A stretch of 50,785 nt of DNA from a virus (lineage: Duplodnaviria; Caudoviricetes): IMG/VR virus record IMGVR_UViG_3300008005_000900, positions 1 through 50,785 of that record; one strand, given 5' to 3'. The stretch's first letter is position 1. Every line of letters begins with the position of its first letter. The translations under genes and the position numbers were made by a program. Shown here one piece after another: positions 799 to 44,102 of this stretch. The notes beneath the pieces are model-generated. The model worked only from the letters and a program-made list of their open reading frames with translations, ran no database searches and was not told where the DNA came from.

Positions 799-1017
799 AT
801 GCACATAATCTTAATGCTTGTCCTGGTTGGTATTGGTTGCGGCCTTTTTAGTGCCGCGCCTTTAATCGGTTTTATATTCCTAGCTTTAGGGCTTGGGTGT
901 TTCGTTTTGGGGAGTGATAAAAAGCGCCAAGATGCCGAGGCGCTTTTTTTTATGTTTGGCTTGATAGCAATGGTGCTTGCTTTGGTGGTGAATGCTTGGA
1001 AGTGGCTAACTAGTTAA
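799..1017 (+). CDS. small membrane protein (72 aa, 2-3 TM)
   Basis: almost entirely hydrophobic apart from a SDKKRQD loop; converges on the late operon. Confidence 0.7.
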   Translation: MHIILMLVLVGIGCGLFSAAPLIGFIFLALGLGCFVLGSDKKRQDAEALFFMFGLIAMVLALVVNAWKWLTS

Positions 1018-24949: not shown

Positions 24950-25975
24950 TTAGGTGTTAGAAGGAGTTGCTAACGCACCCGCTTCAATACGCACCATCCA
25001 CAAGTCATTGAGGATTTCGCAACAGTAGTATGTTTTCCATGCCACTGATCCGTTTTGACCCAGTTCGTCACCAAAAGTAGGCGTACCAGGATTGCGAAGC
25101 ATTGGCTTGATGGCGCCGCCAGCTTCTTGACTGCCTTTTAACGCGATATGGCCAAACGCATGCATACCCATGACTAAGATGGGGTATACATCAGCACTTG
25201 TGCCGGTGGTTGAGATTAACTCAGACGCACCAGTGCCTTTCGCGCCACCTGCATCAGCCCAAGGGTTGAATAAAGGCGAGGCAATAAAGCGCACATCTTC
25301 AACGCTGCCCACTTCTTCAGCACAGATAACTTTGCGATTGCCGTACTTAGCCACTGGCACGAAACCAGGCATTGCACGAACTGAGGCAATGATGTCTGTG
25401 TGACAAACGGCAACAAAGGCCGCTTCAATGGGTGTAGTTGAAATGTTAACGCTGCCGCTTAACACGTCAGTAATACGTTTTGCGCGGTTTGCCAAAAGCA
25501 CACGCACAGCTTTACGTACAGTTGATAACGTGATGGTGCTGGTTACTTCGTCACGATCAGCGCCGTTTGCGTATAAAACGTTGGTACCAGCAATTAACTT
25601 GCCGTATGCCACCATTTCAACGGTTTCAGCCGCTTGCTGTGACGCGATTTTTAGCATGTCGGAACCAACTGGATCTTCATGCAAGTCTTTAACTACGTCA
25701 GTTAATTCCATCCATGCGCCATACTGTTGAACAGTGGCGTTAAAACGGTCATAACGGAAGTTGGTGCTTGAAGGGCGAGTGCCTTCAGTTAATGCGGTAG
25801 TAGCTGCAGCTAGCACCTGTGGGCGACGAAAGCGCATAACTTTCGAGGCATTTTTTGGCATCGGTTTAGCGTCACCTAATTTGTTCAAAACAATAATAGG
25901 CTCTGCATATTCTAACGCTTTTTTTTCTGCGAAGACGCCAGCGCCTACGCCTAAGTCACCATAATCACTAGACAT
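24950..25975 (-). CDS. major capsid protein, N4-gp56 family
   Basis: PMPKN.SK..RFRR, ALTEG..P, QQYGAWMELTD, EVGSVEDVRF, DELGQ.GSVAWK, ILNDLWMVRIE. Confidence 0.85.
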   Translation of the reverse strand: MSSDYGDLGVGAGVFAEKKALEYAEPIIVLNKLGDAKPMPKNASKVMRFRRPQVLAAATTALTEGTRPSSTNFRYDRFNATVQQYGAWMELTDVVKDLHEDPVGSDMLKIASQQAAETVEMVAYGKLIAGTNVLYANGADRDEVTSTITLSTVRKAVRVLLANRAKRITDVLSGSVNISTTPIEAAFVAVCHTDIIASVRAMPGFVPVAKYGNRKVICAEEVGSVEDVRFIASPLFNPWADAGGAKGTGASELISTTGTSADVYPILVMGMHAFGHIALKGSQEAGGAIKPMLRNPGTPTFGDELGQNGSVAWKTYYCCEILNDLWMVRIEAGALATPSNT

Positions 25976-25986
25976 GGTATTTACTC

Positions 25987-26859
25987 CTAAGTGGTAATTC
26001 GATTAAAAAGTTCAACTGGATCGGAGCTATCCAAGTCACTTGATGGCTTTCCACCGCCTTTGCGGGGAATAGCAACGTGATTAGATAAGTCCTTGGTTTT
26101 GTTTGCGGGTTTAGCCGGTTGGCGTGTACCCTTGTAGAGATTAAGCAGGGCTATGTTGTCATCTGCATCCATACTTTCTGCGATGCGCTTGATAGCGTTG
26201 GGCTGGCCTGCTAGCCAGTTTTGAAACGCTTGATCGGCTACCACATTTCTAAAGTCAGGGTGAGCGGCTTCGACGCGAGATAATTCAGAGTCAATGATCT
26301 TCTTCTGCTGCTCTTGCTCCCGTTCCTGCTGTATTTTTTGCAGAGGACTAAGCTTTTCCTCAATCATTTGACTGAGTTGCTTATCTCTTGCCTTGAGAAA
26401 TGCTGCTAACTCTGGATATTCGGCCTCGATGTCTTCATCGGTCATGCCGTTTAAATCTTCCTGAGTTGGCGCGTCTTCTTTCGGCTTGCCACCTTTTGCC
26501 TGCTCACTCTCAGCAACCAGTTTTTTAAACTTTTCTAGATCCCGTTGTGTTGGGGCTAATCGGTTGTAAACTGCTTGGTAATCGTTTTGAGACTTTTGGA
26601 GGGCTTGTTTTAGAGTCTGATACTGTTGGCGCAAGGCTTCAGGTGCCGACTGCCAAGGATCGTCTTCCTGATCGCTTTGTCCTTCACCACTATCGTCTTG
26701 TCCTTCATCCGTGTCAGTGTCGTCATCTTGATCCAGCTTTGAATCTTCATTAACCGGCTTACCGGAGTCTTTGTCAGAGTCCTCGCTAGTTATTTGTGCG
26801 AACAAAGCTGCCGCCTCGTCGATTTCTTCGATCTGCGGTTTATTTTCATTGTTACTCAT
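25987..26859 (-). CDS. capsid scaffolding protein
   Basis: acidic coiled coil with HPDF..V.AD.AF..WL motif, directly upstream of MCP. Confidence 0.75.
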   Translation of the reverse strand: MSNNENKPQIEEIDEAAALFAQITSEDSDKDSGKPVNEDSKLDQDDDTDTDEGQDDSGEGQSDQEDDPWQSAPEALRQQYQTLKQALQKSQNDYQAVYNRLAPTQRDLEKFKKLVAESEQAKGGKPKEDAPTQEDLNGMTDEDIEAEYPELAAFLKARDKQLSQMIEEKLSPLQKIQQEREQEQQKKIIDSELSRVEAAHPDFRNVVADQAFQNWLAGQPNAIKRIAESMDADDNIALLNLYKGTRQPAKPANKTKDLSNHVAIPRKGGGKPSSDLDSSDPVELFNRITT

Positions 26860-26893
26860 GGGTTTCTCTGTGTTTGAGTGCTTTCGCAGTCAT

Positions 26894-26919
26894 AAAAAAC
26901 CCACTACAATGAGTGGGTT
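26894..26919 (-). terminator. intrinsic terminator upstream of scaffold
   Basis: AACCCACT-N6-AGTGGGTT plus T run. Confidence 0.65.
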
Positions 26920-26950
26920 CTGGTTTGCCGAGTGATTGCTCAGTCAGCGG

Positions 26951-27283
26951 TTAAACTGTTTCGTAAGTGGCTTGGAAAATATCAGGCTTGCAAGGGTATT
27001 TTTCGCCCTTAACTCCAGTAATAATAAAATCACCAGGGCAAACAATGTGACCACCTTCTAGCGTATCTATCCAGCCATGAGAGTGCATGTTATTACTGCA
27101 TTGTTTGCAACTAGATTTGCCATCAACATCAGGAGTTCTGAAATAGCGAACCACCTTCCCTTCAAACTTCTCTCCTTTAAATTTTCCGGAATCAAAGGTT
27201 TCACTTCCATCTTCAGGATGATCGCCATTTTTAAACCATTGAACCGCATCAATAACGACTGGCTTCTTTCTATACTTAGCCAT
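26951..27283 (-). CDS. widespread phage protein of unknown function (KYRKKPVVI.A...TLEG...PGDFII.G..GE.YPCKPDIF family)
   Basis: recognisable family motifs with a CxxC..HxH insertion. Confidence 0.75.
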   Translation of the reverse strand: MAKYRKKPVVIDAVQWFKNGDHPEDGSETFDSGKFKGEKFEGKVVRYFRTPDVDGKSSCKQCSNNMHSHGWIDTLEGGHIVCPGDFIITGVKGEKYPCKPDIFQATYETV

Positions 27284-27285
27284 AG

Positions 27286-27471
27286 TTATTCCTCTTCTTT
27301 AATTGCTAGAATGTGTGCTGGATAGCGGTCCAATATGTCATCAATCTGTTTGATGCTGCCGCGAACTTCTGGGTTATCCTGCCTAACTAACTGTTCAACT
27401 AAGTCTTTTCTATCAGACTCAAGGGCAGCTTTAATCTTGAGCCATGCTGCTGAGTGGATTAATTGACTCAT
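27286..27471 (-). CDS. small helical protein downstream of portal
   Basis: SAAWLKIK..L...VRGSIKQI pattern common between portal and scaffold. Confidence 0.65.
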   Translation of the reverse strand: MSQLIHSAAWLKIKAALESDRKDLVEQLVRQDNPEVRGSIKQIDDILDRYPAHILAIKEEE

Positions 27472-29642
27472 TCGCCTAGTCCGTAGTTAGCCGTTGGGCT
27501 TTCAAACTTATATTTAATATTTAACTCGGCCATAAACTGCTGCCAATCACTATCAAGCTTGGCTTGGTTCTTTTTCAAGTCAGCGATTAGCTTTTCAGTA
27601 TTTATCTTATCGTTCTGAGCAAGGCGCATCATTTCGATACGCTCTTTAGATGCGGCCTCTTGCAAGCCAGCCTGAACTTTTGCCCCAAACATTTCATATT
27701 CAAATTTGAATTTGGCTTGTTGCTGATCCATTCTCATTTGCTCAACTGCAATAGCTGAGTCTTGAGGCTGCTCGCCCTGTTGTTCCTGTTGCTTCTTGAT
27801 GAATTCCTCTAATTCTTCATCAGTCGGCAACATTGAAGCAGGCAAGCTTTGCGTTTTCGCCCACTGCCTGAGTATCTCTGCGGCTTTTAGTTGTAACACT
27901 GGTGCAAATACCGGGTTACTGCCGACTACGCCCAAGAAGTTGGTTATAGCTGCGGCTTGTGTTTCTTTGACGAGTAGCGCTGAAGTGCCGCGAGCATCAA
28001 CCTGGTAATCACCTTTAATGTCGCCGTTTTCGTTGTATTCCATGTTCCAGTGGTAAAAGTCTTTTATCATGGGTGAAGTAATATTGTCGTCCCATGCTTT
28101 CACCTGCCTACGTCTAACCGTGTTGGCGCTATTCATTAAAATAGACATACCGCCAAGGGTTTGAGTAGATTGGCCTTGTTCGCCTTGCTGGAGCATTGGA
28201 ATGCCTGATACTTCATCAAACATGATTCGAGCCATTTGGTAGATACCTTGAAGCTCTGGCAAATGACTGTTGAATTCCATTGCAGTAAATACTTTGCGAA
28301 TATCGTCAACTGAGCCGGATAACTCCCATTGTTTGAATGGCTCCAATGCCCAATCACCGTTTACCGGGCTAATGTGTTTACCTGAGCGCCCTATTTGTGG
28401 CCCCGCAGTAATCGCGCCGTTATCTAAAATCATGCGCCATACTGAGTTAATAATCGCTTGTTCATCACGCACCATTCGAGGTACGCCATAACCAAACAAG
28501 CAAGAGTCGTCAGGCTCCCAGTTAAAGACGCGATAAGGTAGGTAATCCTCGTAATCCATCATCTTTAATTTGGCACCAATAGTAATGCCGCCACAATAAA
28601 ACACGGTGGCGATCACTTCTTCGCCCTCGAACTCTTTCAGTAAAGCATCGCGTTCTTCGGCATCTTCGGGCAGCTCAACTGCACCCAAGCGGATTAATGC
28701 GTCATAGCTAACAGGCCCGGTATATTCCCACGTCTCAAAACGAGTGTCGTTTAATGACTCAGACAAACCAGCCAGACGACGAACATCATCCATGTATGAA
28801 CTTGAGTGCTGAGTTTGCGCACCCGTCATTTGCAGCACTTTTTTAATCTGCTCTTTATCAAAGCCTTTACGCTTAACCAGCCCTTTTAGCTGGGCTTTAC
28901 TCATGAATCGACGTTCAAACACAAATTCGCATTCGCTTATGTGACTTGCCGACATATCAGGAAAGAAATCCCAAGGGCGAACCACTTCGCATGCTGGCGT
29001 TAGGCTTTCAACGAGTTTATGCGTCCAGCCTTCTTTGGTTTCCATATAAACCTTGTCTTGTTTGCCAACAACTACAGGGCCTTTTAGTATGCCTGTGCCA
29101 ATAACACAGGCGTCATGAATGACTTTGCGGCATTTTGCTTCGTAGTCCGATTCGACTAACTGATCGTTAATCTCGTCTTCCATCTTGTCGCAACGGTCAT
29201 TAGCTATCTGAAGCTTACGCGCTGCAAGCATGCCGTTAGTAACAATCTCGCCTTCTTCGTCTTGATACTTCTGCCCGTCAATTTGTGCGGGTGAATCGTC
29301 GTTCAATTGATCTGCTATCTCAGGCACAGGTGTTGGCTTGATGCCCCAGTTTTTATCTGTATTTGGAAAGAGCAGATCGATTAATTGTGACTCACCGGCA
29401 TTGGTTTTAGCGCGAGTAAGCTTGATGAATGTACTTGATCGCTTAGCTTTCTTTAGCTCTGCCACTCTTGATTGGTCATAACTGCCGTGGTAGTTCTGTA
29501 AATCCTCAACCATGCGAATATCAATCGCGTTTCTGTCCGTGATTGTATCCGACAATTTACGCTCTAATTCCATAGCAAGATTGTCTAGCGGGTTTTGAAC
29601 ATCATATTCATGCCCGTAGTCTTTGGGTTTAAGCTTTGTCAT
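27468..29642 (-). CDS. portal protein
   Basis: 724 aa after TerL; GTGILKGP, PWDFFPD, FGYGVP, QTLGGMSILMNSA, GDYQVDARG; C-terminal coiled-coil barrel. Confidence 0.85.
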   Translation of the reverse strand: MTKLKPKDYGHEYDVQNPLDNLAMELERKLSDTITDRNAIDIRMVEDLQNYHGSYDQSRVAELKKAKRSSTFIKLTRAKTNAGESQLIDLLFPNTDKNWGIKPTPVPEIADQLNDDSPAQIDGQKYQDEEGEIVTNGMLAARKLQIANDRCDKMEDEINDQLVESDYEAKCRKVIHDACVIGTGILKGPVVVGKQDKVYMETKEGWTHKLVESLTPACEVVRPWDFFPDMSASHISECEFVFERRFMSKAQLKGLVKRKGFDKEQIKKVLQMTGAQTQHSSSYMDDVRRLAGLSESLNDTRFETWEYTGPVSYDALIRLGAVELPEDAEERDALLKEFEGEEVIATVFYCGGITIGAKLKMMDYEDYLPYRVFNWEPDDSCLFGYGVPRMVRDEQAIINSVWRMILDNGAITAGPQIGRSGKHISPVNGDWALEPFKQWELSGSVDDIRKVFTAMEFNSHLPELQGIYQMARIMFDEVSGIPMLQQGEQGQSTQTLGGMSILMNSANTVRRRQVKAWDDNITSPMIKDFYHWNMEYNENGDIKGDYQVDARGTSALLVKETQAAAITNFLGVVGSNPVFAPVLQLKAAEILRQWAKTQSLPASMLPTDEELEEFIKKQQEQQGEQPQDSAIAVEQMRMDQQQAKFKFEYEMFGAKVQAGLQEAASKERIEMMRLAQNDKINTEKLIADLKKNQAKLDSDWQQFMAELNIKYKFESPTANYGLGE

Positions 29643-31132
29643 TAGTAACCTGTTGTTGAGTCTGCGATCATAGATTGATTTGTGTTTGTTGAAGCTAGGT
29701 GAGCGTCACGCCATGCGTAATCAATTTCACCTTGAGCGCCTTGACATAAGTATTGTTTTGCATCGTGTGGATGCGAGTAAGCGTTTTTGTCTGCAGCATC
29801 AGCGTATTTCTCGCCACTGACATTTAAGCGCCTGAACGCATAGCCACCGTTGTAACCCTTAATCAATACCGGGCAATCTGGGCTTATTTCCATCGCTGGA
29901 GCGCCATCTATTCGCCCTGTTAGAAACGTGTTAACCGCTTCCCATCGTCTTTCAGGCTTGTTTGATGCTGTTGGGTACGCTGCTAAATTGTATTCATCGT
30001 TGATAATGCCAAGTGGTGAGTTTTCATCGTTACCGCTTTTAGCTACACCCGCCGGATCGCCGTAAACCTCAATATCTGACTTATTGAAGCGCTTCAGATC
30101 CACGTTGATGTATGGCATTACAAGCGTGTCCATGAATGAGCGAATACCCATTCCGGTAGCGATTAACTCTTTGATGACTCTTAGCTTGCCGTTTGGCATG
30201 AGCTGGCCAACAACTGCGGCTGGTGTGCGCCCAAAGTCGATGCCAATCATAATCTTTGGCACTTTAACGATGGGAGATAACGGGTATTTAGCTACGTGAA
30301 TAGCGTCATTCCACAAGCCTTGATAAATCGGCTTGCCGCTTGATACGTGGCCGTACTGATTAGCCAGGTTAACCCTAATCCAATCATCCTTTTTACTGCC
30401 CACTTGATTAATATAATAACCATCCGGCAGATTATGTAGGTTCTCAGCATGTGGATTTTCCACCCATTCTGATCGCCTATCCATTCCAGTGCCGTGAACA
30501 ATCTCTAAAACGCCCCCAGGTTGACGCAAGAACGTCCAGCCAGCGGGTTTAATTTGTTCGGCTAACTCGTAATACCAATGATCTGAATCTGGTGCGTTAG
30601 TGTCACCAATCATGCCATGCCAAGTTGGGTTTTGCGGGTAACGACCATGACGTCCATCGCACATATCAACAATGGCTTTATCTAGCTCTTTGACTTCGTT
30701 AAGCCAAAATCCGGTAATCTGAGTACCGCGAAGCTTTCTAACAGCCTTCTCGTTGTCCAAAGCCAGAAAAACAAGCTCAGCAATAACGCGAGTCCCGTCT
30801 TCTAAATCAAAATCCATGTAATGCGTGGGAGGGAAACTATTATCCATCCTGCCAATCTTGATGTGTTCATTGTGATAAAGCTCACACCAATCTTTCATTG
30901 TCGTACCGGTTAAATCAGGGTACGTGTTACGAATAGCCATCCATCGGCTTTTACGTGAGTTGTTTTCGTCCGGCGCTTGTTCGCACATTTGCTTAAACAC
31001 TCGCTCGCATGAAGCGGTTGTTTTAGCAGAGCCTAATGGCCCCATAATCATCGTGACGCGATCACGGCAATTAATATAAGCCTCTAAAGTATCTCCTTGC
31101 GGCGCAAAGTGAAACTCTATTGATTGACCCAT
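29642..31132 (-). CDS. terL: terminase large subunit
   Basis: Walker A GPLGSAKT, Walker B FWLNE, GDTNAP, nuclease GIDFGRTPA, GDPAG, SHPHDAKQY. Confidence 0.9.
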   Translation of the reverse strand: MGQSIEFHFAPQGDTLEAYINCRDRVTMIMGPLGSAKTTASCERVFKQMCEQAPDENNSRKSRWMAIRNTYPDLTGTTMKDWCELYHNEHIKIGRMDNSFPPTHYMDFDLEDGTRVIAELVFLALDNEKAVRKLRGTQITGFWLNEVKELDKAIVDMCDGRHGRYPQNPTWHGMIGDTNAPDSDHWYYELAEQIKPAGWTFLRQPGGVLEIVHGTGMDRRSEWVENPHAENLHNLPDGYYINQVGSKKDDWIRVNLANQYGHVSSGKPIYQGLWNDAIHVAKYPLSPIVKVPKIMIGIDFGRTPAAVVGQLMPNGKLRVIKELIATGMGIRSFMDTLVMPYINVDLKRFNKSDIEVYGDPAGVAKSGNDENSPLGIINDEYNLAAYPTASNKPERRWEAVNTFLTGRIDGAPAMEISPDCPVLIKGYNGGYAFRRLNVSGEKYADAADKNAYSHPHDAKQYLCQGAQGEIDYAWRDAHLASTNTNQSMIADSTTGY

Positions 31133-31217
31133 TTATGCAGCTTTTATGTGATTTATGCAGAACTCAGAAATATAACCCTGCTGAATTTTGGCACTTATGA
31201 ATAGTTATTCTGCATAG

Positions 31218-31778
31218 TTATGCTGATTTAGGCTTTTTGCCCGTCATATCTTTGATAACAACTGTTGTTCTAGCGTTAAGATCGGCATTAATCTTGGTTG
31301 GAGCATTCCAACCCAATATATCGCTAAGTTGTTTAATTGCCGCCTGCGGATCGTGAAGCTCTAATTTAGGGCCCATCTTTGTAGCTGTGACTGATTTGAT
31401 GGCAGATAAAGCAAGTGGACTTATTTCATCGCTATTCTTAATGCGCCAAATTGTTTCTTTAACGTCAGCGCCGTTTTCGTCCTGCCCAACAACTCTTTCT
31501 GAAAACTCAGCTATATCATTGACCGTGACTCTTGCGCTTAATGAGAGTCTTTCAAGCGCTTCCTGCTTTGTCATTACTGATGAAGTAACAGCCGCCTGGT
31601 TAAGCTCCTTCAGTCTTACCGCGATCTTACCGTTTTTTAGTAATTCACTTGCTTTAACGTTAATTGTCTCAAGCTTCATTTTTTCAGCAGAATAAGATGC
31701 TCTGTAAGCATCTGAAGCATTGCCGCACCTGTTATATTCGATACAGAAAGCTTCTTGCTTTTGTGTGAGGTTGCTCAT
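31218..31778 (-). CDS. terS: terminase small subunit
   Basis: LTQKQEAFCIEY..GNASDAYR..Y...ASELLKN; KLELHD..AAIKQL..ILG. Confidence 0.9.
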   Translation of the reverse strand: MSNLTQKQEAFCIEYNRCGNASDAYRASYSAEKMKLETINVKASELLKNGKIAVRLKELNQAAVTSSVMTKQEALERLSLSARVTVNDIAEFSERVVGQDENGADVKETIWRIKNSDEISPLALSAIKSVTATKMGPKLELHDPQAAIKQLSDILGWNAPTKINADLNARTTVVIKDMTGKKPKSA

Positions 31779-31784
31779 TGATTA

Positions 31785-32318
31785 TCAGGAATTAATTTGG
31801 TTTGTTTTCAGGTGGCTTTTGTATGGGTGATTATCTGGCAATGGACTGCATAACCAATAAATACCACCAGGGCTTTCTTTATGTGCCAAGTGGCTTTTTA
31901 CGGAGCACATTGCATGAGCAGTGGTTTCAACACAGAAATCTTTAATCGGATCGTGATAGTTTACTTTGATATAGGCGCAGATTAAGCCGAGCATATCGAA
32001 TGGCATGCCTAGCCTAGCTCTTGCTATCTCGATGTCGCCGTATGTTTCGCGTATATCAACCAATGGGTACCGGGCTATAAACTCAAGCAAAGGCGTTTTA
32101 GTTACGCCGTAAGGCTTACTGTATGACGCACCAAATAATGAATGCTTGAGCCATTCCCGAAAAGGTGGTCCTAACGACTCAATAACCTGTCCGTCTTCTT
32201 CGTCTATCGGACCGCAATGAGTCCAGATGCTTTTTGTACTTCGTTTAATCGTTCTGCTAATCCAGTGATCGCCAGAGCCGAAAATGATTAGCATTTTAAA
32301 TCGCGTTTTCAGCCGCAA
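31785..32318 (-). CDS. permuted papain-like (NlpC/P60, YiiX-type) amidase/peptidase; start may be ATG at 32294
   Basis: ISRTIK..T.S.WTHCG (His), ARLGMPFD, FCVE (Cys): His-before-Cys order. Confidence 0.7.
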   Translation of the reverse strand: MRLKTRFKMLIIFGSGDHWISRTIKRSTKSIWTHCGPIDEEDGQVIESLGPPFREWLKHSLFGASYSKPYGVTKTPLLEFIARYPLVDIRETYGDIEIARARLGMPFDMLGLICAYIKVNYHDPIKDFCVETTAHAMCSVKSHLAHKESPGGIYWLCSPLPDNHPYKSHLKTNQINS

Positions 32319-32622
32319 ATATTTTGGCTAACTGTGAATTGGCAAAAGCTCGGTAGGGCGCAAGCTCCTCTTCAAGCTTATTAATCTGTATCTCAAGATT
32401 ACTAATATGCTGAGTCTGACTGTTAACCTGGATAACCAAAAGTTCAGATTGTCTGCTAAGCAACTCAACTTGCTTAGATAGCGCCAGTGTTGCGTTCTTA
32501 ACCATCTTAGGCATTAAATACAAATAAGACAGGATCAAAGCAATGATAGTGCCGGTACAAAAACCAACAACAAACTCCGGTGACTTCTCAGCCAAAAAGG
32601 CCATTATCTGCGCGTATTCCAC
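32296..32622 (-). CDS. single-TM coiled-coil lysis-cassette protein (possible i-spanin-like)
   Basis: GTG start overlapping the holin stop; TM followed by heptad-rich helix. Confidence 0.5.
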   Translation of the reverse strand: MEYAQIMAFLAEKSPEFVVGFCTGTIIALILSYLYLMPKMVKNATLALSKQVELLSRQSELLVIQVNSQTQHISNLEIQINKLEEELAPYRAFANSQLAKIFAAENAI

Positions 32623-33011
32623 TACTTCTTCGCCTTTTCTACTATTTTTTCTAATGATCGCCCAGTGACATAGCCGCCTAAGCCAATTTGTAATAGCGTC
32701 CATGCTTCTGTTGCTAAGGGGTTGGCCAGCCAACCGAATGAGTCAAACACCACTAAGGCCAAGAACGTTAGCATTGTGATTGGCCGCCAACTTCTTTGGA
32801 GCCAGCTTTGGCCGTTAGCCTCTGCTGTGATAATCGAGGTTTTCGATTCAAGTATTTTTGTTTCATACTCAATCACTTTGCTGTGCATCTCGTTTTGGAT
32901 GACTGTCAGCTTGTTAGCCAGGGTCAGTTTTTCTTCGTCACTAGTGTGCAGGTCATCAATCAGCTTAGCCGCTGGCGCAAATATCTCACCGATGAAACTA
33001 AAAATATTCAT
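32622..33011 (-). CDS. holin (3TM / GTA-holin family)
   Basis: LIDDLHTSDEEK...SWLQRSWRP...LGGYV.GRSLEK. Confidence 0.8.
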   Translation of the reverse strand: MNIFSFIGEIFAPAAKLIDDLHTSDEEKLTLANKLTVIQNEMHSKVIEYETKILESKTSIITAEANGQSWLQRSWRPITMLTFLALVVFDSFGWLANPLATEAWTLLQIGLGGYVTGRSLEKIVEKAKK

Positions 33012-33014
33012 TTC

Positions 33015-33377
33015 TTATGCGGCTTTGATAACCAGTTGATCTTTAACCAACGCAAGGCGCATTTGAAAGATGAATGCTAATTTGTCAATTACAGACATTT
33101 CACCGCCCTCCGAATATTTCTTTAGCGTTTCGTTGAAAGATTTAATAATCAGACCAGCTAACGTTTCGACGTCAATGTCTTTTTGTATGTCTTCCCACAG
33201 CGTGTCGAATTGCTTTATTAATTCCCAATCTGAGCCTTTTTTAAGCAGTAATGCTGGGTAAACGATGCCTGGCCATTTAATTGGATCGAAGTCAAAAAGC
33301 CCGGCATAAAAAGAATTTGCCCCGATTGTAAAGGCGTAACCTCTGCCTTGCGCGTCTGTTGGTGTAATCATTGCCAT
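33015..33377 (-). CDS. hypothetical protein between endolysin and holin
   Basis: 120-aa ORF overlapping the lysozyme stop; start may be ATG at 33371. Confidence 0.6.
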   Translation of the reverse strand: MAMITPTDAQGRGYAFTIGANSFYAGLFDFDPIKWPGIVYPALLLKKGSDWELIKQFDTLWEDIQKDIDVETLAGLIIKSFNETLKKYSEGGEMSVIDKLAFIFQMRLALVKDQLVIKAA

Positions 33378-33796
33378 TCTCCGGTTTGAAGCTGTTCGGC
33401 TAATTCGTGTGCGCGATTACCCACTTGCACAGCGTAATGACTGTTTAATAGCTCCGCTGCGGCTTCATCGTAATCTTCACGCTCTAATGCGCCGATCATA
33501 TTTTTAAAATTGAGTAGGCCAGTAACGCCTAGATTGAAAGCCATATTGACCAATACAGCTTGTCTTGTGCCTGAGAAGGTGCGAAAACTTGGCAGTCTGC
33601 GTCTTAGTTCTTCTTCAAAATAAATGATGTCGTTATCAAGCATAAACATGGCTTCTTGCTCTGTTACGCCTTTAGCTTCGAGATTTCGACCCACGCCAAT
33701 AGTTAACTTTCCTGATGTGCATTTATACGGCTTTAATTTAATCCCTTCATGCCCTATCAGTTGACGCTTTAGTTGGTCGTAGCAAATCATTAACAA
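33368..33796 (-). CDS. endolysin, GH24 (T4-like) lysozyme
   Basis: HEG.KLKPYKCTSGKLTIGVGRNL; LVNMAFNLG; AVQVGNRA. Confidence 0.9.
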   Translation of the reverse strand: MLMICYDQLKRQLIGHEGIKLKPYKCTSGKLTIGVGRNLEAKGVTEQEAMFMLDNDIIYFEEELRRRLPSFRTFSGTRQAVLVNMAFNLGVTGLLNFKNMIGALEREDYDEAAAELLNSHYAVQVGNRAHELAEQLQTGEWQ

Positions 33797-34044
33797 GTCA
33801 CTTCCATTCTATTTAAAATGCTGCCGTCATCGATTTTCGTGTTAAGTGGTGACTTTAATTCTCTTGGCATTTGCAGGGTTGCGCCTTTTAAGTTGGCACT
33901 CTTTAATCGTTTCATTTCAGCAAATAGCGCAAATTCAGCTATTGAATTACCGACTTCTGAATCGCTATCAATTCCTGATTTTTCAAAGAATTCATTTAGC
34001 GTTTTAATGCAGTCTGAACACTGAAGATAATCAATAGCTTTCAT
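33790..34044 (-). CDS. hypothetical protein, first ORF of late operon
   Basis: 84-aa ORF overlapping the lysozyme start. Confidence 0.5.
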   Translation of the reverse strand: MKAIDYLQCSDCIKTLNEFFEKSGIDSDSEVGNSIAEFALFAEMKRLKSANLKGATLQMPRELKSPLNTKIDDGSILNRMEVTC

Positions 34045-34061
34045 TTCAAAGGCCTTTAAAC

Positions 34062-34085
34062 GAAAAACCCCGCACTAGGCAGGGT
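34062..34085 (-). terminator. second late-leader terminator
   Basis: ACCCTGC-CTAGT-GCGGGGT plus T run on the minus strand. Confidence 0.55.
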
Positions 34086-34117
34086 AAACAGGGAAGCACT
34101 TGTTTAATTTTTGGCAC

Positions 34118-34140
34118 AAAAAAACCGCAATTAAGCGGTT
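34118..34140 (-). terminator. tR'-like terminator downstream of late promoter
   Basis: AACCGC-TTAATT-GCGGTT plus T run. Confidence 0.75.
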
Positions 34141-34177
34141 ATGTGCTGACAAGACGGAAAACTCCAAGTCTTATAGC

Positions 34178-34206
34178 ATAATAGAGCATAACATTTATGC
34201 AGTCAA
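34178..34206 (-). promoter_or_regulatory. pR'-like late promoter
   Basis: TTGACT-17 nt-TATTAT, downstream of Q and just upstream of terminators. Confidence 0.7.
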
Positions 34207-34315
34207 CTCTTGCGATAATAGAAAAATGCTAACCATTTTTGGCTGTTAAAACTCACTGTTTATTGTGTATTTAAAATTATTTTCATTTATTTTAAATAAA
34301 GCGCTTGCATTATAG

Positions 34316-34480
34316 CGCGCTAATAAAGCGCAGAACGAAAAACGCCAAGGCAAGCCACGCTTGCCAAGTGTTATATTAACGAATGAGCAAAACGCACTTT
34401 TAAATGATATGGCTAAACTGCACGGCAGTAAAACTGCTGCTATTTTTGCAGGGCTTGAGTTGCTAAAATCAAGCCGCTAA
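34316..34480 (+). pseudogene. 5'-truncated ribbon-helix-helix-like gene remnant
   Basis: open frame RANKAQNEKRQGKPRLPSVILTNEQNALLNDMAKLHGSKTAAIFAGLELLKSSR with no start codon or RBS at its 5' end. Confidence 0.45.
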
Positions 34481-35056
34481 ATCTTTATTGAGTCTATCCA
34501 TTACCTCGTGGGCAAATCGTTTTGCCGCCGATTCTGCAACATTTAGCCTGTCTACTGCATCCATGTAAACTGAATAATATAGCTCGTTGAACTGCTCAAA
34601 TGTCATTTTATTGTCGCTTGGTCGCTGACTGTTGATAGTTAAATAAAGCTGTTTTGTTGTGAGTATAATTCGCCCCACCCCTTGGCATTTTGTGCAGGTA
34701 ACAAGCTTGCGCTCTTTCTTGTATATCGCCTCACCATTCCCTTTGCACTTATCGCAAATGCAGGTATCGCAAACCTCGTGTATAGCATTCTCAGCGATTA
34801 TAGCGCTCATGAGTATATTGATTGACTTGTCATGATGAAGCCAGGCAGTAAACGTTTTAACAAGTTTATTCCTACTGTTTTTGTCTAACTGTATTTTGGC
34901 CTGCAATATCATGTTGCCAACCGGCTCGTGCCGCTGGACCTGGGCAAGGATATTTAAAATGTCGGCACTGGTCATTGGGTTTAGTCCGGGCTTAGTCGGC
35001 TCACCTGTTAGCGACTTAGGGCATTCTCTACTGTATAAGCGCTCAATTGACATCAT
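34469..35056 (-). CDS. late antiterminator Q (Zn-finger type)
   Basis: MTSADIL..LAQVQ...PVG, CDKCKGNG...CTKCQGVG; last gene before pR'. Confidence 0.75.
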   Translation of the reverse strand: MMSIERLYSRECPKSLTGEPTKPGLNPMTSADILNILAQVQRHEPVGNMILQAKIQLDKNSRNKLVKTFTAWLHHDKSINILMSAIIAENAIHEVCDTCICDKCKGNGEAIYKKERKLVTCTKCQGVGRIILTTKQLYLTINSQRPSDNKMTFEQFNELYYSVYMDAVDRLNVAESAAKRFAHEVMDRLNKDLAA

Positions 35057-40205: not shown

Positions 40206-40303
40206 GTGTCTATCCCCTGCTCAATTGTTAAAATTGCGCTAAATAGCCAGATGATGGCCAACGTCATAGCAGTGCGTTTGATGTGTGTGACGGTGTTATT
40301 CAC
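40136..40303 (-). CDS. small single-TM protein (55 aa, MNNTVTHIKR...)
   Basis: read by hand; GTGA overlap with upstream ORF. Confidence 0.4.
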   Translation of the reverse strand: MNNTVTHIKRTAMTLAIIWLFSAILTIEQGIDTWSNSETDAELTTQANTQRSGTL

Positions 40304-40422
40304 GCTGCATCCAATGGTGTAAATTCATCATTGGCCGCATAAACGTAAGCCAGATTGGTGAATTTCTGAGTTTGAAGAACGTTAGTTGTTGAAAAGTTTA
40401 CTTGAATGGGTAATGTGATCAT
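40300..40422 (-). CDS. 40-aa peptide ending in an ssrA-tag-like sequence
   Basis: ATGA overlap with cro stop, GGAGG RBS; ends YAANDEFTPLDAA. Confidence 0.6.
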   Translation of the reverse strand: MITLPIQVNFSTTNVLQTQKFTNLAYVYAANDEFTPLDAA

Positions 40423-40664
40423 GCGGCCTCCTTCTCTATTTCCATGAATATGTCAGGGCGGAGCATTTCTTTTGTCACCTTTCCATCGGTTAGTGCTGCG
40501 ATGTACGGGACAAAAACGGGCGAACACTTGCAACCACGCTTGTTTATCCATCGACTAACAAGCTGTTGGCTCAGTGTCCTGCCAGCTTTCTCAGAAATAA
40601 TTTTTGCAAATTTAGATTGATTGCCGTCTGCAATTATCTTCACTGCTTTTTTTATGGGCTTCAA
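40419..40664 (-). CDS. cro: Cro-like HTH repressor (TTG start)
   Basis: GNQSKFA...SQQLVSRW...T.GKVTKEMLRPDIF (YdaS/Cro pattern); GAGGTG RBS; divergent from repressor. Confidence 0.85.
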   Translation of the reverse strand: MKPIKKAVKIIADGNQSKFAKIISEKAGRTLSQQLVSRWINKRGCKCSPVFVPYIAALTDGKVTKEMLRPDIFMEIEKEAA

Positions 40665-40698
40665 TTTACACCTCAAGTGGTATTTAAGTTACTTTGAT

Positions 40699-40760
40699 AC
40701 TACTTTAGTTGTATATTTGCACAAATGCAAGCTTGTTTGCTATGCTACAAACTAATTTGT
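40699..40760. promoter_or_regulatory. OR: three 14-bp 434-like operators
   Basis: ACTACTTTAGTTGT (40699), GCAAGCTTGTTTGC (40727), ACAAACTAATTTGT (40747). Confidence 0.65.
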
Positions 40761-40796
40761 AATATTTATAAGGATTGTTTAATGAGGTTGTTTATT

Positions 40797-41234
40797 GTGC
40801 CGACACTTGGAACACGAGTAAGGGAAGCGAGGGAGGCTTTAGGGTGGAAGCAAGACGAACTTGCCAATGCATCCGGGGTATCTCAGCAAGCTATTACCAA
40901 GATTGAGTCAGGAACGACGAAAAGACCTACCTGCATAAATGCTTTGGCTAAGGCCCTTGGCGTTTCTGTAGATTATCTTGAAACTGGATCAGCGAATGCG
41001 TCAAGAGACGATCCAACTATTGAAGCCGAGTCTTACATGCTAACCGCTAAGTCAGCGCTTGGCGAGTCAATATCAAGCATGAGGGCAATCAATAAAAGCA
41101 GGGGCAAGCCTGATAACGAGATAGATCAGCCTCTTTTGGTTAGAGCATTTGAAATATCGCTACGCGCCAAGCTAACAGGTGATTATTTAACGGCAGCTTT
41201 AGAACTTCAGGATATTAAAAAGACACAAAAATAA
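40797..41234 (+). CDS. CI-like XRE-HTH immunity repressor lacking an S24 peptidase domain (GTG start; ATG at 40782 possible)
   Basis: TLGTRVREARE.LGWKQDELA..SGVSQQAITKIESG.TKRP...LAKALGVSVDYL; short helical C-terminal domain. Confidence 0.85.
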   Translation: MPTLGTRVREAREALGWKQDELANASGVSQQAITKIESGTTKRPTCINALAKALGVSVDYLETGSANASRDDPTIEAESYMLTAKSALGESISSMRAINKSRGKPDNEIDQPLLVRAFEISLRAKLTGDYLTAALELQDIKKTQK

Positions 41235-41243
41235 AAGCGCGGG

Positions 41244-41564
41244 TTATCTAGCCGCGCCGTTGTTTATCGCACCCTTCAAATCTTTACCAAGCAATTTATT
41301 TGCGTGGTTAATGGCCTTGCTTTTAAGTGTTATGTACTCAATTGAATCGTCTCTCACAAGAGCATCTTCAGCCTGCAAGAACAATTCCAAATTCGATTTA
41401 AGGCGTTCATTAAGTGGGTCACCAATAGAAATGACATTTTTGGATTTGGTGATTTCAACTAGCCACTGACCTCTATCATTGATATGAGTTTTTTCTAATT
41501 TGTATATTGTGTAGCAAAACAAAATAATAACTATCACCAATAATAACACGATCAAAACATTCAT
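41244..41564 (-). CDS. N-terminally membrane-anchored protein (cassette gene 3)
   Basis: TM at residues ~3-21, then soluble helical domain; ATGA-type coupling to gene 2. Confidence 0.75.
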   Translation of the reverse strand: MNVLIVLLLVIVIILFCYTIYKLEKTHINDRGQWLVEITKSKNVISIGDPLNERLKSNLELFLQAEDALVRDDSIEYITLKSKAINHANKLLGKDLKGAINNGAAR

Positions 41565-42112
41565 TTATTTCCACCAATAGACATATAAAAAAACAAAAAC
41601 CCTTTGCCCAGTTTTAGCAGCACCAATTTCAAAACAAAACCACATAAAACAAATGTAACGCCAAGGTTTATGATTGGAATGATTACCTGGTATAGGTATG
41701 TAAAAGCTTCAGCATTCGTGTAAACCCTTTCTACATAAGTTGCTATTTGAATAAATGACATAGCCAGATAGCAATAAATAATTATTTGCGATGCCTTGTC
41801 TTTTAGCATTCTGTTTTTGCTGAATATAAAATTCAAGACGAGGATCAGTATCAAATCAGTGAGCGCATAGCCCATAAACCACAAAGCATTCACAACCTCT
41901 AAGCACTCCTGGCACCCAAAATACTTTTTAAGCTCATACCTCATTAACTGGTGTATCACGTCGAGCAAAACGACACCAAAGGCCACAAAAACAAATTCTG
42001 TGGCCTTTCTAGTTAGCGCCAAATAACAGCATGCAGCACTCAGACAAATGATAAAGTTTGCCGCTGCAATAAAGTTAATAATTAGCGTCACGTTTGACGT
42101 TACATAATCCAT
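41561..42112 (-). CDS. ~5-TM inner-membrane protein (cassette gene 2, candidate peptide receptor)
   Basis: five hydrophobic stretches, basic inside loops, CQEC in a predicted outside loop. Confidence 0.8.
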   Translation of the reverse strand: MDYVTSNVTLIINFIAAANFIICLSAACCYLALTRKATEFVFVAFGVVLLDVIHQLMRYELKKYFGCQECLEVVNALWFMGYALTDLILILVLNFIFSKNRMLKDKASQIIIYCYLAMSFIQIATYVERVYTNAEAFTYLYQVIIPIINLGVTFVLCGFVLKLVLLKLGKGFLFFYMSIGGNK

Positions 42113-42128
42113 TATCTACCACTGTAAT

Positions 42129-42323
42129 TTACCCCTTTGTAGGCTTTGGTGGGAGTTCCCCGTCACCATTACCAAGCGTGCTAACTGAGCACATAAAAGG
42201 GGCTAGTTTGCAATACCAAGCCAATGGAACCGGTTCAGTCGTTTCCTCAGAGTTTGCCGCTACTGATGCAATAGCTAATAAACTCGTGGCCGCCACTAAA
42301 AACACTTTCTTAATTTTTTTCAT
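42129..42323 (-). CDS. small secreted peptide precursor (cassette gene 1)
   Basis: GGAG RBS; Sec signal MKKIKK-hydrophobic-SVAA; mature part ~41 aa with Cx6C and GNGDGELPPKP. Confidence 0.8.
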   Translation of the reverse strand: MKKIKKVFLVAATSLLAIASVAANSEETTEPVPLAWYCKLAPFMCSVSTLGNGDGELPPKPTKG

Positions 42324-42344
42324 AATCACTCTCCAATAAGTTAA

Positions 42345-42360
42345 CTGTAAAAATATACAG
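42345..42360. promoter_or_regulatory. LexA (SOS) box
   Basis: CTGTAAAAATATACAG vs consensus CTGTATATATATACAG, 21 nt upstream of the peptide ATG. Confidence 0.8.
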
Positions 42361-42439
42361 CATTACAACTTTATCAGATAAACCGAGTAATCAAAAAACA
42401 TTGAATATGTTTTATATGATTAGTATAACAAAAAAACCT

Positions 42440-42482
42440 TTGACAACAACTTTTATTGTACTACTATTACTACTTTAGTTGT
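42440..42482 (+). promoter_or_regulatory. pL-like promoter with OL operators
   Basis: TTGACA-16-TACTAT; ACAACTTTTATTGT (42446) in the spacer and ACTACTTTAGTTGT (42469), the latter identical to the OR site at 40699. Confidence 0.75.
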
Positions 42483-42618
42483 GTTCTTAAGTGCTTTATG
42501 TGTCACAACTTTAAGGTCAGATATTTGCACATGCTTACCACGCTGGCAAATAATTTTCTTACCGGATTGTAACAAATGATAAGGCTTAGTCTCGCTTATG
42601 GAAATTAGAGGTTCACAC

Positions 42619-42939
42619 ATGAATAACTTCAATTACGCAATTCAGTTAGCAGACAGACTAATGAGTCCGCCAGTTAACCATCGCGAAGAACTCGATGAAC
42701 TTATCCAAGCTTATGCCGACGAATGCCTAAGAAATGGCTCCGTGTACGCATTTGGCGACGAGATAACAATTGTTCACGCCTACAGAGAGCTTGATGGAGA
42801 TGAAGAATCAGCGGTGATTAAAATGCGTAATCCCGCCACATATCAACATGGGCTTGATGAGCTTAACCAAATGTTATTTGAAAAACTGTGCTGGCTGATT
42901 GAGTTAGCGCGAAATGAACAACAAGATTTAGCAGATTAA
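42619..42939 (+). CDS. hypothetical early protein
   Basis: AGAGGT RBS before ATG at 42619; first ORF after pL. Confidence 0.65.
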   Translation: MNNFNYAIQLADRLMSPPVNHREELDELIQAYADECLRNGSVYAFGDEITIVHAYRELDGDEESAVIKMRNPATYQHGLDELNQMLFEKLCWLIELARNEQQDLAD

Positions 42940-42957
42940 CAACAGTAAGGGGAGATT

Positions 42958-43449
42958 ATGAAAATAATTACTACAGGTAGTGAACTAAGGGCGTTAATAG
43001 GTGCAGATGGGAAAGTTTCTGAGCCGATCACAATGGCTGAAGGCTGTGAGTTCTTTGGCTTAGAAAGCTTGACATCATTTGAAGGTATCACGATGGCTAA
43101 AGGTTGTAAGTTCTTTGGCTTAACCAGCTTGACATCATTTGACGGTATAACGATGGCTAAAGGTTGTAAGTTCTTGGGGTTAAACAGCAGTATAAAGTTA
43201 TCAGCAACCCCCTCAGAAGAAGAAATGAAAATAATTAAACAAATACCCATCGAAAAAATAAACATGTCATCTTGGCACTGTGGCACAGCTCACTGTCTAG
43301 CTGGGTGGGCACAGGTTATTTCAGGACGTCCCATGAGAGATAGCACAGCGATTAGCGATGGGCGCGAATTACTGCCATCGTTGTCTCACCTGTTTTTTGC
43401 GCCAGACGAACCAGTTAAAAAGCTATTAATGAAGCTGCAAGCAATTTAA
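42958..43449 (+). CDS. early protein with 20-aa LRR-like repeats and a C-terminal WHCGTAHCLAGW domain
   Basis: GGGGAG RBS; ITMAKGCKFFGLTSLTSFDG x~2.7. Confidence 0.75.
   Translation: MKIITTGSELRALIGADGKVSEPITMAEGCEFFGLESLTSFEGITMAKGCKFFGLTSLTSFDGITMAKGCKFLGLNSSIKLSATPSEEEMKIIKQIPIEKINMSSWHCGTAHCLAGWAQVISGRPMRDSTAISDGRELLPSLSHLFFAPDEPVKKLLMKLQAI
43027..43188 (+). repeat. 60-bp coding tandem repeat (~2.7 copies)
   Basis: units start at 43027, 43087, 43147 and share ATGGCT(G/A)AAGG(C/T)TGT(G/A)AGTTCTT. Confidence 0.9.
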
Positions 43450-43533
43450 GCCGACCTCTTTCGAGGGCACACAAACCGACTGGCTAAGTTCACAAGGCCG
43501 CGCCAGTCAAAGTAAGCAAATGGAGTGTAACCG

Positions 43534-43824
43534 ATGACAGACTTAATTTACAAATACAACGTTGTTCAAGTGATTGATGATATTAAACACCACGTCGATC
43601 AAATCAAAGCCGAAGATAACGGTATTGAGGCAGATTGCCAACAATACGAAACCTCTTTAGTGGTTAGCATTAAGCTGCCAAATGGAGAAGAAAGAAACCG
43701 AGTTTTTATCATGCGCAATCAACTTAACGAAATGCGCAATTACCTTGATTCAGTTTTAAAGCCACTCACAACCGTGTCACCGGAAGCACAAGTAACGAGC
43801 GACTTTAAAGGAGTTGCAGCATGA
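43534..43824 (+). CDS. hypothetical protein
   Basis: GGAG RBS; ATGA coupling to next ORF. Confidence 0.65.
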   Translation: MTDLIYKYNVVQVIDDIKHHVDQIKAEDNGIEADCQQYETSLVVSIKLPNGEERNRVFIMRNQLNEMRNYLDSVLKPLTTVSPEAQVTSDFKGVAA

Positions 43825-44102
43825 GCTACGAAAAGATTTTCCAAGGAAATGGCAAGACATTTAGCGCCTCTTATGAGGCTAAAAAGTGGCTTTCAGATAA
43901 TGGTTATAGCTACGGCGTTTCATGTATTGGCGGCCCAATAGGTGTAATTAAAGGTGATGCCATTATTTCAAAATGGCACAACATGACCAGAAAAGAGCAG
44001 TCAGAAATGGACGGGCTTTTATATACGGATCGAGAAGGTCCCGCTCGACTAGTTTTAAAAGTGGCGCCAACTAAACCCGCGGGAGTAAATGACAGTGAGT
44101 AA
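43821..44102 (+). CDS. conserved hypothetical phage protein
   Basis: F.A.YEAKKWL.DNGYSYG...PIG...ISKWHNM...MDG....REGP pattern. Confidence 0.7.
   Translation: MSYEKIFQGNGKTFSASYEAKKWLSDNGYSYGVSCIGGPIGVIKGDAIISKWHNMTRKEQSEMDGLLYTDREGPARLVLKVAPTKPAGVNDSE

Follow-up and report, generated by a model that had tools for sequence, protein, structure and literature searches.

A three-gene family of marine Gammaproteobacteria with a member in a lambdoid prophage: a candidate cassette of exported peptide, membrane receptor and adaptor

Described systems closest to the cassette

To our knowledge, only in Bacillota are phage decisions known to be controlled by peptides, and the receptors there are intracellular. 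The locus described here is a tight operon of three genes within a 50,785-nt stretch of DNA (IMG/VR virus record IMGVR_UViG_3300008005_000900, positions 1 to 50,785; the whole of this stretch is hereafter called the window), whose host element is a lambdoid prophage. The genes are predicted to encode an exported peptide (g1), a five-helix inner-membrane protein (g2) and a bitopic protein (g3). The trio belongs to a family of three-gene cassettes in marine Gammaproteobacteria that had not been described before, and it is read here, with a probability of about 0.4, as an autonomously transcribed moron whose products would be a peptide ligand for export, the receptor for it in the membrane and an adaptor in the cytoplasm. 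No described Gram-negative counterpart or cassette was found in a full-text literature search, at abstract level, or in family libraries.

The arbitrium systems resemble the trio in that a small precursor, secreted there and predicted to be exported here, borne by a phage and carrying a conserved-plus-variable motif near its C-terminus, is encoded at the lysogeny control region. They differ from it in their receptor, since AimR is a cytoplasmic tetratricopeptide repeat (TPR) protein that needs import of its peptide, whereas g2 is a five-helix membrane protein without TPR; moreover, there is no aimX-like output here, the host is Gram-negative, and the system is known from its genes alone. In the Rap-Phr pairs of the RRNPP group, according to the part of the account drawn on here, genes for a propeptide and its cognate receptor are adjacent, occur on chromosomes and mobile elements, and have diversified into paralogues (PMC10075063). 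To that extent they are like the present cassettes, in which propeptide-like and receptor-like genes are also adjacent and several paralogues are present per genome, on chromosomes as well as on mobile elements. However, the two are related neither in sequence nor in fold, and here the receptor is membrane-embedded, the peptide gene comes first and a third, bitopic gene follows.

For a relay from the peptide to the phage repressor, a model that is weighed below, the closest mechanistic precedent would be SdpC/SdpI/SdpR of Bacillus subtilis, in which, in the portion of the source used here, an exported peptide binds a polytopic protein from outside, which then sequesters a repressor (PMC2910880). 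As far as that portion goes, both systems comprise an exported disulfide peptide (a putative one here), a polytopic membrane protein, a cytoplasmic repressor and convergent operons. Nevertheless, g2 is not of the SdpI family, as it gave no Pfam hit at E ≤ 1 to the SdpI model; the repressor here is of the HTH_3/Cro-CI type and encoded on the other strand, rather than an ArsR-type protein encoded in the operon; and SdpC is a toxin that needs SdpAB, whereas the present cassette is known from sequence alone.

The slot between cI and pL is occupied by exclusion genes in phages lambda (rexAB) and P22 (sieB). The trio lies in the same slot and, like these genes and like morons as outlined in the part of the literature consulted (PMC3594210), it forms an independent transcription unit encoding membrane proteins; contigs from RNA libraries cover it alongside the repressor gene. 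In contrast, it has no homology to them, it runs on the other strand from the repressor gene, a peptide for export is among its products and its family also occurs outside phages. Class II bacteriocins and microcins differ in that the g1 of the window has a Sec-type signal rather than a double-glycine leader, and no dedicated peptidase-ABC exporter is near, there being no large ORF from 40300 to 44000.

Both leading readings of the trio, as a peptide/receptor cassette and as a prophage moron, assign it to kinds of system already known, here with parts that are all new. If it is a peptide/receptor pair, Proteobacteria and the phages that infect them would join the organisms with peptide sensing, by means of a Gly/Pro ligand and a receptor in the membrane whose fold class is new; if it is a defence or exclusion module, one using an exported peptide would also be new. 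Either way, it belongs to a testable three-gene family with 418 clusters, a signature motif, conserved receptor residues and variants with 1-14 motif copies. The named Alteromonas hosts may be culturable, and current annotation libraries leave the family blank.

The trio and its relatives

In the window (coordinates in Table 1), the trio is a tight minus-strand operon located between the repressor gene and the early-left promoter and converging on the repressor; a preliminary description, made from the letters of the window, had placed it so, and the ORF positions agree. It is assigned to this interval because a pair of operator-like words and a promoter-like site flank it. The g1 gene starts with the ATG at 42323, 7-8 nt after a GGAG, and its product begins MKKIKK. 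Read by eye, this 64-residue product opens with a basic n-region, continues with a hydrophobic core and has a V-A-A site that would release a mature peptide of 41 residues, which upholds the Sec-type precursor and the ~41-aa peptide first proposed. The mature part contains a C-x6-C loop and the motif G-N-G-D-G-E-L-P-P, 13 residues from the C-terminus. The stop of g1 and the start of g2 are 16 nt apart, and the ATG of g3 overlaps the TGA of g2 (ATGA). The other parts of that first outline also stand, namely a gene 2 product with about five transmembrane segments and no output domain (there are five helices in the AlphaFold2 model and no Pfam domain) and a translationally coupled gene 3 product with one hydrophobic N-terminal helix and some 85 charged residues after it.

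At curated cut-offs, nothing was matched by g1-g3 in Pfam, PHROGs, PADLOC or NCBIfam, and the defence models of PADLOC-DB 2.0 gave no family for them even at E ≤ 1. Pfam at E ≤ 1 returned only Rep_fac_C for g2 (E 0.16) and no output domain; neither g2 nor g3 had a TPR, AimR or other Pfam or NCBIfam match; and an Rfam scan of 40300-42700 gave no match.

The family is defined by g2. Of 1.84 billion representative clusters, a profile built from its relatives matched 418 at a cut-off of E ≤ 1e-3 and still 302 at E ≤ 1e-10; the proteins of the best 150 of the 418 are 101-247 aa long and have no extra domain. Matches were found in 20/200 other genomes of the same taxonomic family and in 0/6 other genomes of the window's own genus, in 28/400 other genomes of the order, with 18/20 in one genus with 2.4-2.9-Mb genomes, and in 0/399 other genomes sampled across the class (one further genome was unscored). 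Among the genomes searched, the range is that of the Alteromonadaceae and three allied families only. Carriers with a name belong to Alteromonas (several species), Paraglaciecola and Thalassotalea, besides an unclassified Alteromonadaceae. In the catalogues, g2 relatives fall into a single family, phrog_31674 (PHROGs v4, without function annotation), which 61 of the 97 relatives match at E ≤ 0.001 (the best at 1.4e-23); g1 and g3 are outside it, its match to the g2 of the window is weak (E 0.0022), and there is no match at 0.001 in the window's own genome. No relatives were found among phage records (DNA search and four protein queries), in a plasmid collection, or in viral contigs searched with single proteins. 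A profile scan of viral contigs yielded one locus (L096), which repeats the L058 prophage, a metagenome scan also yielded one (L097), which repeats the L053 phage, and a homologous-protein search returned the query itself and one relative at 77% identity, nothing else.

The AlphaFold2 model of g2 consists of five long helices (pLDDT 82.4, pTM 0.72, from a 16-row alignment). Compared with the Protein Data Bank (PDB) by Foldseek, it gave no match at E ≤ 0.001, the best being of the cytochrome b561 type (E 0.23-0.37, TM 0.39-0.46); the g2 profile matched none of the PDB sequences, and the ESM Atlas yielded only unnamed clusters, one of them auto-named MreD without a Pfam family. Three residues, W78, Q122 and Y141, do not vary among 16 sequences and keep a conservation of at least 90% in 97; in the model, they lie at the ends of helices 3, 4 and 5. 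Frequent as well are an acidic-basic pair following Q122 and a Pro-x-x-Asn following Y141. By the positive-inside rule, short loops rich in Arg and Lys at 33-38 and 98-107, together with a Lys-rich C-terminus, point to an N-out, C-in topology for g2, in which the ends of helices 3-5 that carry all these conserved residues would face the periplasm. Proline-rich peptides are usually read by aromatic and amide side chains. A role of g2 as a protease or an AgrB-like enzyme was considered and rejected: a His that had been noticed is not conserved, and the family has no invariant Cys, Ser or His. Natural fusions of g1 with g2 or of g2 with g3 were looked for and none was found, the candidate P0131 being an internal duplication of helices 1-3.

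Directly after the cassette of locus L079 (9075-10431) stands a second set of three genes, for a 125-aa signal-bearing, a 176-aa multi-helix and a 145-aa single-helix protein. The g2 profile did not detect it, so that a search with this profile may underestimate the extent of the family.

For the comparison of gene neighbourhoods, ~16 kb around 40 genome places and ~20 kb around nine named loci were used, with script-called ORFs (L numbers designate loci), giving 56 distinct g2 genes in 47 cassettes. These were scanned for the pattern [N/G/S/H]-G-x-G-x(1-4)-P, whose family form is G-N-G-G-G-x-x-P-P. An ORF with the motif lies directly upstream of 41 of the 56 g2 genes, and the motif is present in 42/135 small ORFs just upstream of g2 versus 20/6499 other small ORFs of the same loci; the peptide gene and the five-helix gene are almost always paired, as anticipated in the preliminary description, with a gene order that is conserved from genome to genome, and the pairs of G.G.G.EP peptide and membrane protein that it mentioned for Alteromonadales were found in the cassettes. 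By script, g1 is present in 39/47 cassettes, and in 41/47 with L055 and L072 added by eye; the six that lack it mostly have the weakest g2 matches (L088-L090, L093).

Seven columns are invariant in 16 peptides of the Sec/Cys type (C38, P42, C45, N52, G53, G55 and P58). In L051, L053 and L059, identical copies of the motif stand right after the signal-peptide site and near the C-terminus, and in L065-67, L074, L084, L091 and L092 there are tandem arrays of 3 to ~14 identical units of 10-19 aa. In these arrangements, the motif behaves like a modular, position-independent unit. The leaders also vary, mostly Sec-type, with double-glycine-like ones in L070 and L085 (ComC E 0.057, sub-threshold) and several that resemble the N-terminal half of FlgM (E 0.035 and 0.055, again sub-threshold). 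Export of one motif by different routes can be taken to mean that it has to get across the inner membrane. Lastly, six paralogous cassettes from one genome form one clade on the g2 tree and differ in the variable motif residues.

The 6-Mb genome G013 has seven g2 matches in five places, L062 (6253-8833), L064, L068, L073 and L080; the peptides that go with the six in the tree carry differing motif variants, each with a leader like the N-terminal half of FlgM. At L062, two tandem cassettes lie beside a pair resembling MqsRA (by eye) and type III CRISPR-Cas genes (PADLOC).

A bitopic gene follows g2 in 26/47 cassettes and is taken as a positional analogue of g3. In every g3 that was read, the basic residues come after the helix, which predicts a cytoplasmic tail; in sequence, these proteins could not be aligned with one another. 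Against the PDB, g3 found only designer PPR repeats, with no stretch passing, and its model in the ESM Atlas is poor (pTM 0.29).

Where the cassettes sit differs. The downstream neighbour matches HTH_3 in 12 of the 47, and a jackhmmer search seeded with the repressor of the window flagged 11 cassettes, ten of them convergent and one, L073, on the same strand; all 11 carry g3. Three loci of the small-genome genus (L086, L087 and L094) have tandem g1-g2 pairs without g3, which converge on a gene of 129-161 aa matching HTH_3/HTH_26 just under the Pfam cut-off. Together, the 11 flagged cassettes and these three chromosomal sub-cut-off loci make 14/47 with an adjacent helix-turn-helix (HTH) gene; the other 33 have none adjacent. 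The proposal that the trio is conserved beside phage repressors accordingly stands in part: at least 12/47 cassettes adjoin a Cro/CI-type HTH gene, in several prophage types, but most cassettes do not. The S24 peptidase family is absent from the 25 neighbour families listed out of 49. In nine HTH-adjacent loci, one of which is an IMG/VR viral contig, 139 proteins include families of DnaB-like helicase, SSB, integrase, O-like initiator, CII-like regulator, tape-measure and tail proteins. The prophage label requires six changes on the g2 tree, at least two of these changes being forced by well-supported branches, in a set in which not all prophage loci are independent (L065-67 are near-copies, and the window with L056 and L058 with L051 are related pairs). 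At L086, L087 and L094, the gene on the other side resembles a rhombosortase (by eye).

Other cassettes are chromosomal or island-like. In the small-genome genus, one cassette type occupies a core site between genes resembling rsmI and mraZ (by eye). Five syntenic loci of Alteromonas type (L046, L052, L054, L081 and L082) have g1, g2 and often a second g2 without g3, followed on the same strand, ~11 kb into the locus, by a gene for a Reg_prop-PAS-GGDEF-EAL protein of ~1400 aa. Among 106 neighbours of ten island-like loci, strong PADLOC matches include Cas10, Cas7_IIId, Cas5_IIId and HEC-03A/B, with further matches to PDC-S01, PDC-S27, NsnA/B and a type IV restriction enzyme, a count that stands without a baseline. 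Since members also occur outside phages, the phage seems to have acquired a peptide/receptor module of a kind that host chromosomes carry as well.

A proposed peptide ligand and receptor, weighed against other roles

In the reading of the trio as ligand, receptor and adaptor, g1 would be exported, here by Sec to the periplasm and in relatives through double-glycine-type or FlgM-like leaders. Its Gly/Pro motif G-N-G-G-G-x-x-P-P would then be bound by the periplasmic face of g2, with the invariant Trp, Gln and Tyr, and the bitopic g3, with its fast-evolving cytoplasmic helical tail, would couple g2 to a cytoplasmic partner. We infer peptide binding by g2, the adaptor role of g3, the topology and any output, which in the lysogen might concern induction, host behaviour or the exclusion of other phages. 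The reading is supported by the repeated, modular motif, the several export routes, the periplasm-facing conserved residues, the allele diversity of paralogues, the core conservation in one genus and an outside-to-inside topology, and the predicted topologies of g2 and g3 would suit a relay in that direction.

Several observations weigh against it. A peptide of ~4 kDa exported by Sec alone stays periplasmic and, unprocessed, would not act between cells. No pattern was seen by eye between the motif residues and the periplasmic columns of g2, so that the co-varying peptide and receptor alleles looked for since the preliminary description did not appear. The cassette lacks g3 in 21/47 cases, the g3 of the window recovers only itself and L056 among 28 candidates, and g2 has no output domain recognisable in Pfam. 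Tandem copies of g2 without a peptide of their own (L046, L052, L081, L082 and L068) look like orphan immunity genes. Defence genes (Cas10, Cas7_IIId, HEC-03, PDC-S01/S27, NsnAB, type IV restriction) lie beside some cassettes, and exclusion genes classically occupy the slot that separates the repressor from the early-left operon. Finally, the RNA-library contigs that cover the trio carry no information on strand, ends or level.

Some of these points fit another possible role, that of a defence or superinfection-exclusion moron, in which g2 and g3, expressed in the lysogen, would block phage entry or abort infection. The peptide in the periplasm would then either assist them as a cofactor or act as a labile inhibitor, the response being set off when it is lost. 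Such a role, RexAB-like exclusion or defence, is almost as likely as signalling. Besides the slot shared with rexAB and sieB, it would account for promoter and terminator signals of the trio's own and RNA-library contigs over it, for a patchy spread that leaves out the six other genomes of the window's genus, for multi-copy paralogues in one genome, for the strong PADLOC neighbours in the ten island-like loci, and for the fast-evolving cytoplasmic tail of g3, as expected of a part that meets phage proteins. However, PADLOC has no match for g1-g3, and we know of no exclusion or abortive-infection system in which a peptide is exported that carries a motif both conserved and repeated. Moreover, the cassette is near-universal and syntenic in one genus (18/20 genomes), which is unusual for defence genes, and in the five Alteromonas-type loci it precedes the Reg_prop-PAS-GGDEF-EAL signalling gene.

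The model proposed in the preliminary description is a special case nested within the ligand/receptor reading, and an unlikely one. There, the peptide would report lysogen or infection density, the five-helix receptor would sense it, and the bitopic adaptor would pass it on to the non-cleavable repressor and so set lysis versus lysogeny, which would make the system a counterpart of arbitrium whose receptor is in the membrane. At least 12 of the 47 cassettes (14 when pooled) converge on a Cro/CI-type gene, g3 is present in all 11 flagged by jackhmmer, S24 peptidase is missing from the listed 25 of 49 neighbour families, and the Sdp system provides, in the part of the account drawn on, a membrane protein that sequesters a repressor on peptide binding (PMC2910880). 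In addition, among ten prophage-type loci, g3 is similar only between the window and L056 and between L058 and L051, where the repressors are similar too. Yet this joint similarity is not firm as to function because the genes are adjacent and inherited together, and adjacency alone explains it; repressors are similar between the window and L083 and between L056 and L083 (E 2e-17 and 1e-14, respectively), but the g3 proteins are not. Likewise, in 33 cassettes no HTH gene adjoins, some cassettes have a g3 although a repressor is nowhere near (L069, L072, L074, L084, L091, L092), and a peptide exported only by Sec would, unprocessed, not exit the cell. In the boldest form of the relay, the motif would be released, in relatives from multi-copy precursors, and g2 would read it at the cell surface, so that lysogens gauge one another's numbers and adjust induction. 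Should this be true, it would be the first peptide communication system of Gram-negative phages and their hosts, and the chromosomal paralogues would form a hitherto undescribed family of quorum-sensing systems in marine Gammaproteobacteria, with 'pherotypes' specific to the allele.

It is improbable that g1 is a toxin, g2 its membrane immunity protein and g3 an accessory, whether bacteriocin- or microcin-like or an addiction module. The order of the genes, peptide then membrane protein, and their tight coupling would fit, as would the Cys loop of the peptide, the double-glycine-like leaders in a few relatives (L070 and L085, with the sub-threshold resemblance to ComC), the extra peptide-less g2 copies and the diversification of paralogues in one genome. 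A hairpin after the peptide gene would fit as well: hairpins below -15 kcal/mol occur within the first 170 nt after g1 in 23/41 cassettes versus 10/41 control regions. Against this, the peptides are hydrophilic, rich in Gly, Pro and charged residues, without an amphipathic or hydrophobic segment; the 5-14 identical units of 10-19 aa are unlike known bacteriocins; the ORF maps show neither an ABC exporter nor a modifying enzyme beside the cassettes; leaders that are mostly of Sec type would leave the peptide in the periplasm of its producer; and one genus has the cassette as a core, syntenic element.

Very improbable, lastly, is an arrest or leader peptide of the SecM/VemP/RAPP kind, with Pro-Pro stalling in g1 tuning translation of g2: an export signal and a near-C-terminal Pro-Pro just before a tightly spaced gene do make up the secretion-monitoring layout as far as the sources drawn on describe it, but the motif is G-E-L-P-P and not the R-A/G-P-P given there, g2 has no Sec/YidC match, the motif stands right after the signal-peptide site and far from g2 in L051, L053 and L059, up to 14 tandem copies occur, and a stalled ribosome would probably cover rather than expose the g2 start because g2 begins 3-16 nt after the g1 stop or overlaps it in the loci that were read.

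Transcription signals and prophage setting

The trio has signals of its own and phage flanks, as a moron would: a -10 element upstream, a hairpin with a T-run downstream, and on its two sides the repressor and the RecT/YqaJ operon (Table 1). The promoter scan gave a different, overlapping weak site rather than TATATT at 42357-42352. The terminator-like hairpin overlaps the 3' end of the repressor gene and its loop contains the g3 stop; hairpins were scanned up to a loop of 8 nt, so that this one, with its 9-nt loop, is not listed by the scan. The strong hairpin at 41978-42008 falls in the region coding for the first cytoplasmic loop of g2 and may be an attenuator after g1, which would yield more peptide than receptor. 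Hairpins in the 5' part of g2 were also seen in L057, L060, L061, L086, L087, L094 and others, with a T-run behind the hairpin in the small-genome genus.

Table 1. Positions of the trio and of neighbouring features in the window
Feature	Position	Strand	Description
g1	ORF 42129-42329, coding 42129..42323	-	64-aa precursor of a predicted exported peptide
g2	41561..42112	-	183-aa predicted five-helix inner-membrane protein; family-defining, proposed receptor
g3	41244..41564	-	106-aa bitopic protein, N-terminal helix and charged helical tail of ~85 aa, predicted cytoplasmic
Candidate trio promoter	42345..42357	-	-10 TATATT 42357-42352, start near 42345, weak -35; by eye
Terminator-like hairpin after g3	41227..41257	-	6-bp G+C stem, 9-nt loop, then TTTTATTTTT; by eye
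Strong hairpin in the 5' part of g2	41978..42008	-	13 pairs, -25.9 kcal/mol, z -3.76
Repressor gene	ORF 40725-41234, likely start ATG 40782	+	HTH_3, E 1.3e-14; convergent with the trio
Cro-like gene	40419..40676	-	YdaS_toxin family, E 6.4e-10; phrog_35 (transcriptional repressor); diverges from the repressor
Early-left promoter-like site and operator-like word	42440..42482	+	TTGACA-16-TACTAT at 42440-42467, then a 15-nt word

Contigs identical to the window over 40777-42345 are present in four metatranscriptome runs (X16, X22, X23 and X24), possibly from one campaign. One of them, a 1548-nt contig from X16 (40798-42345), spans the repressor gene and the whole trio. The right ends at 42345 (X16) and 42338 (X23) lie 7-14 nt past the proposed -10 element, a weak hint in its favour. 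The left ends, at 40777-40806 in all four libraries, fall within 25 nt of the repressor ATG, again a weak hint, here that the repressor transcript is leaderless and starts downstream of the operator-like words. Bins uncovered in all four runs (the late genes at 25000-34959 and most others) are not read as silence, and DNA carry-over may contribute to the contigs.

The repressor was earlier called non-cleavable, and its HTH_3 match without a Peptidase_S24 match in the Pfam scan is consistent with this. The 15-nt operator-like word has exactly two copies in the region, at 40698-40712 in the cI/cro gap and at 42468. Beyond the early-left promoter-like site, the plus strand encodes RecT, a YqaJ exonuclease, SSB and an integrase. 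The genes for a DnaB helicase, a portal and a capsid protein are on the minus strand. The trio, itself on the minus strand, runs against both the repressor gene and the early-left promoter. An operator shared by the trio promoter was considered, as 42346-42359 matches 40710-40723 at 12/14 positions in inverted orientation, and was rejected as being at chance level; words with up to three mismatches to that of the cI/cro gap number 8 in the window, with 8.9 expected.

Elsewhere in the prophage, a 60-nt tandem repeat (2.7 copies, 88% match) lies at 43027-43188 inside the plus-strand ORF 42958-43449, the second early-left gene, which is without a family match; it encodes three repeats of 20 aa. 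Two very long minus-strand ORFs, at 1014-6692 (1892 aa) and 6775-16656 (3293 aa), are located downstream of the ORFs that come after the capsid gene.

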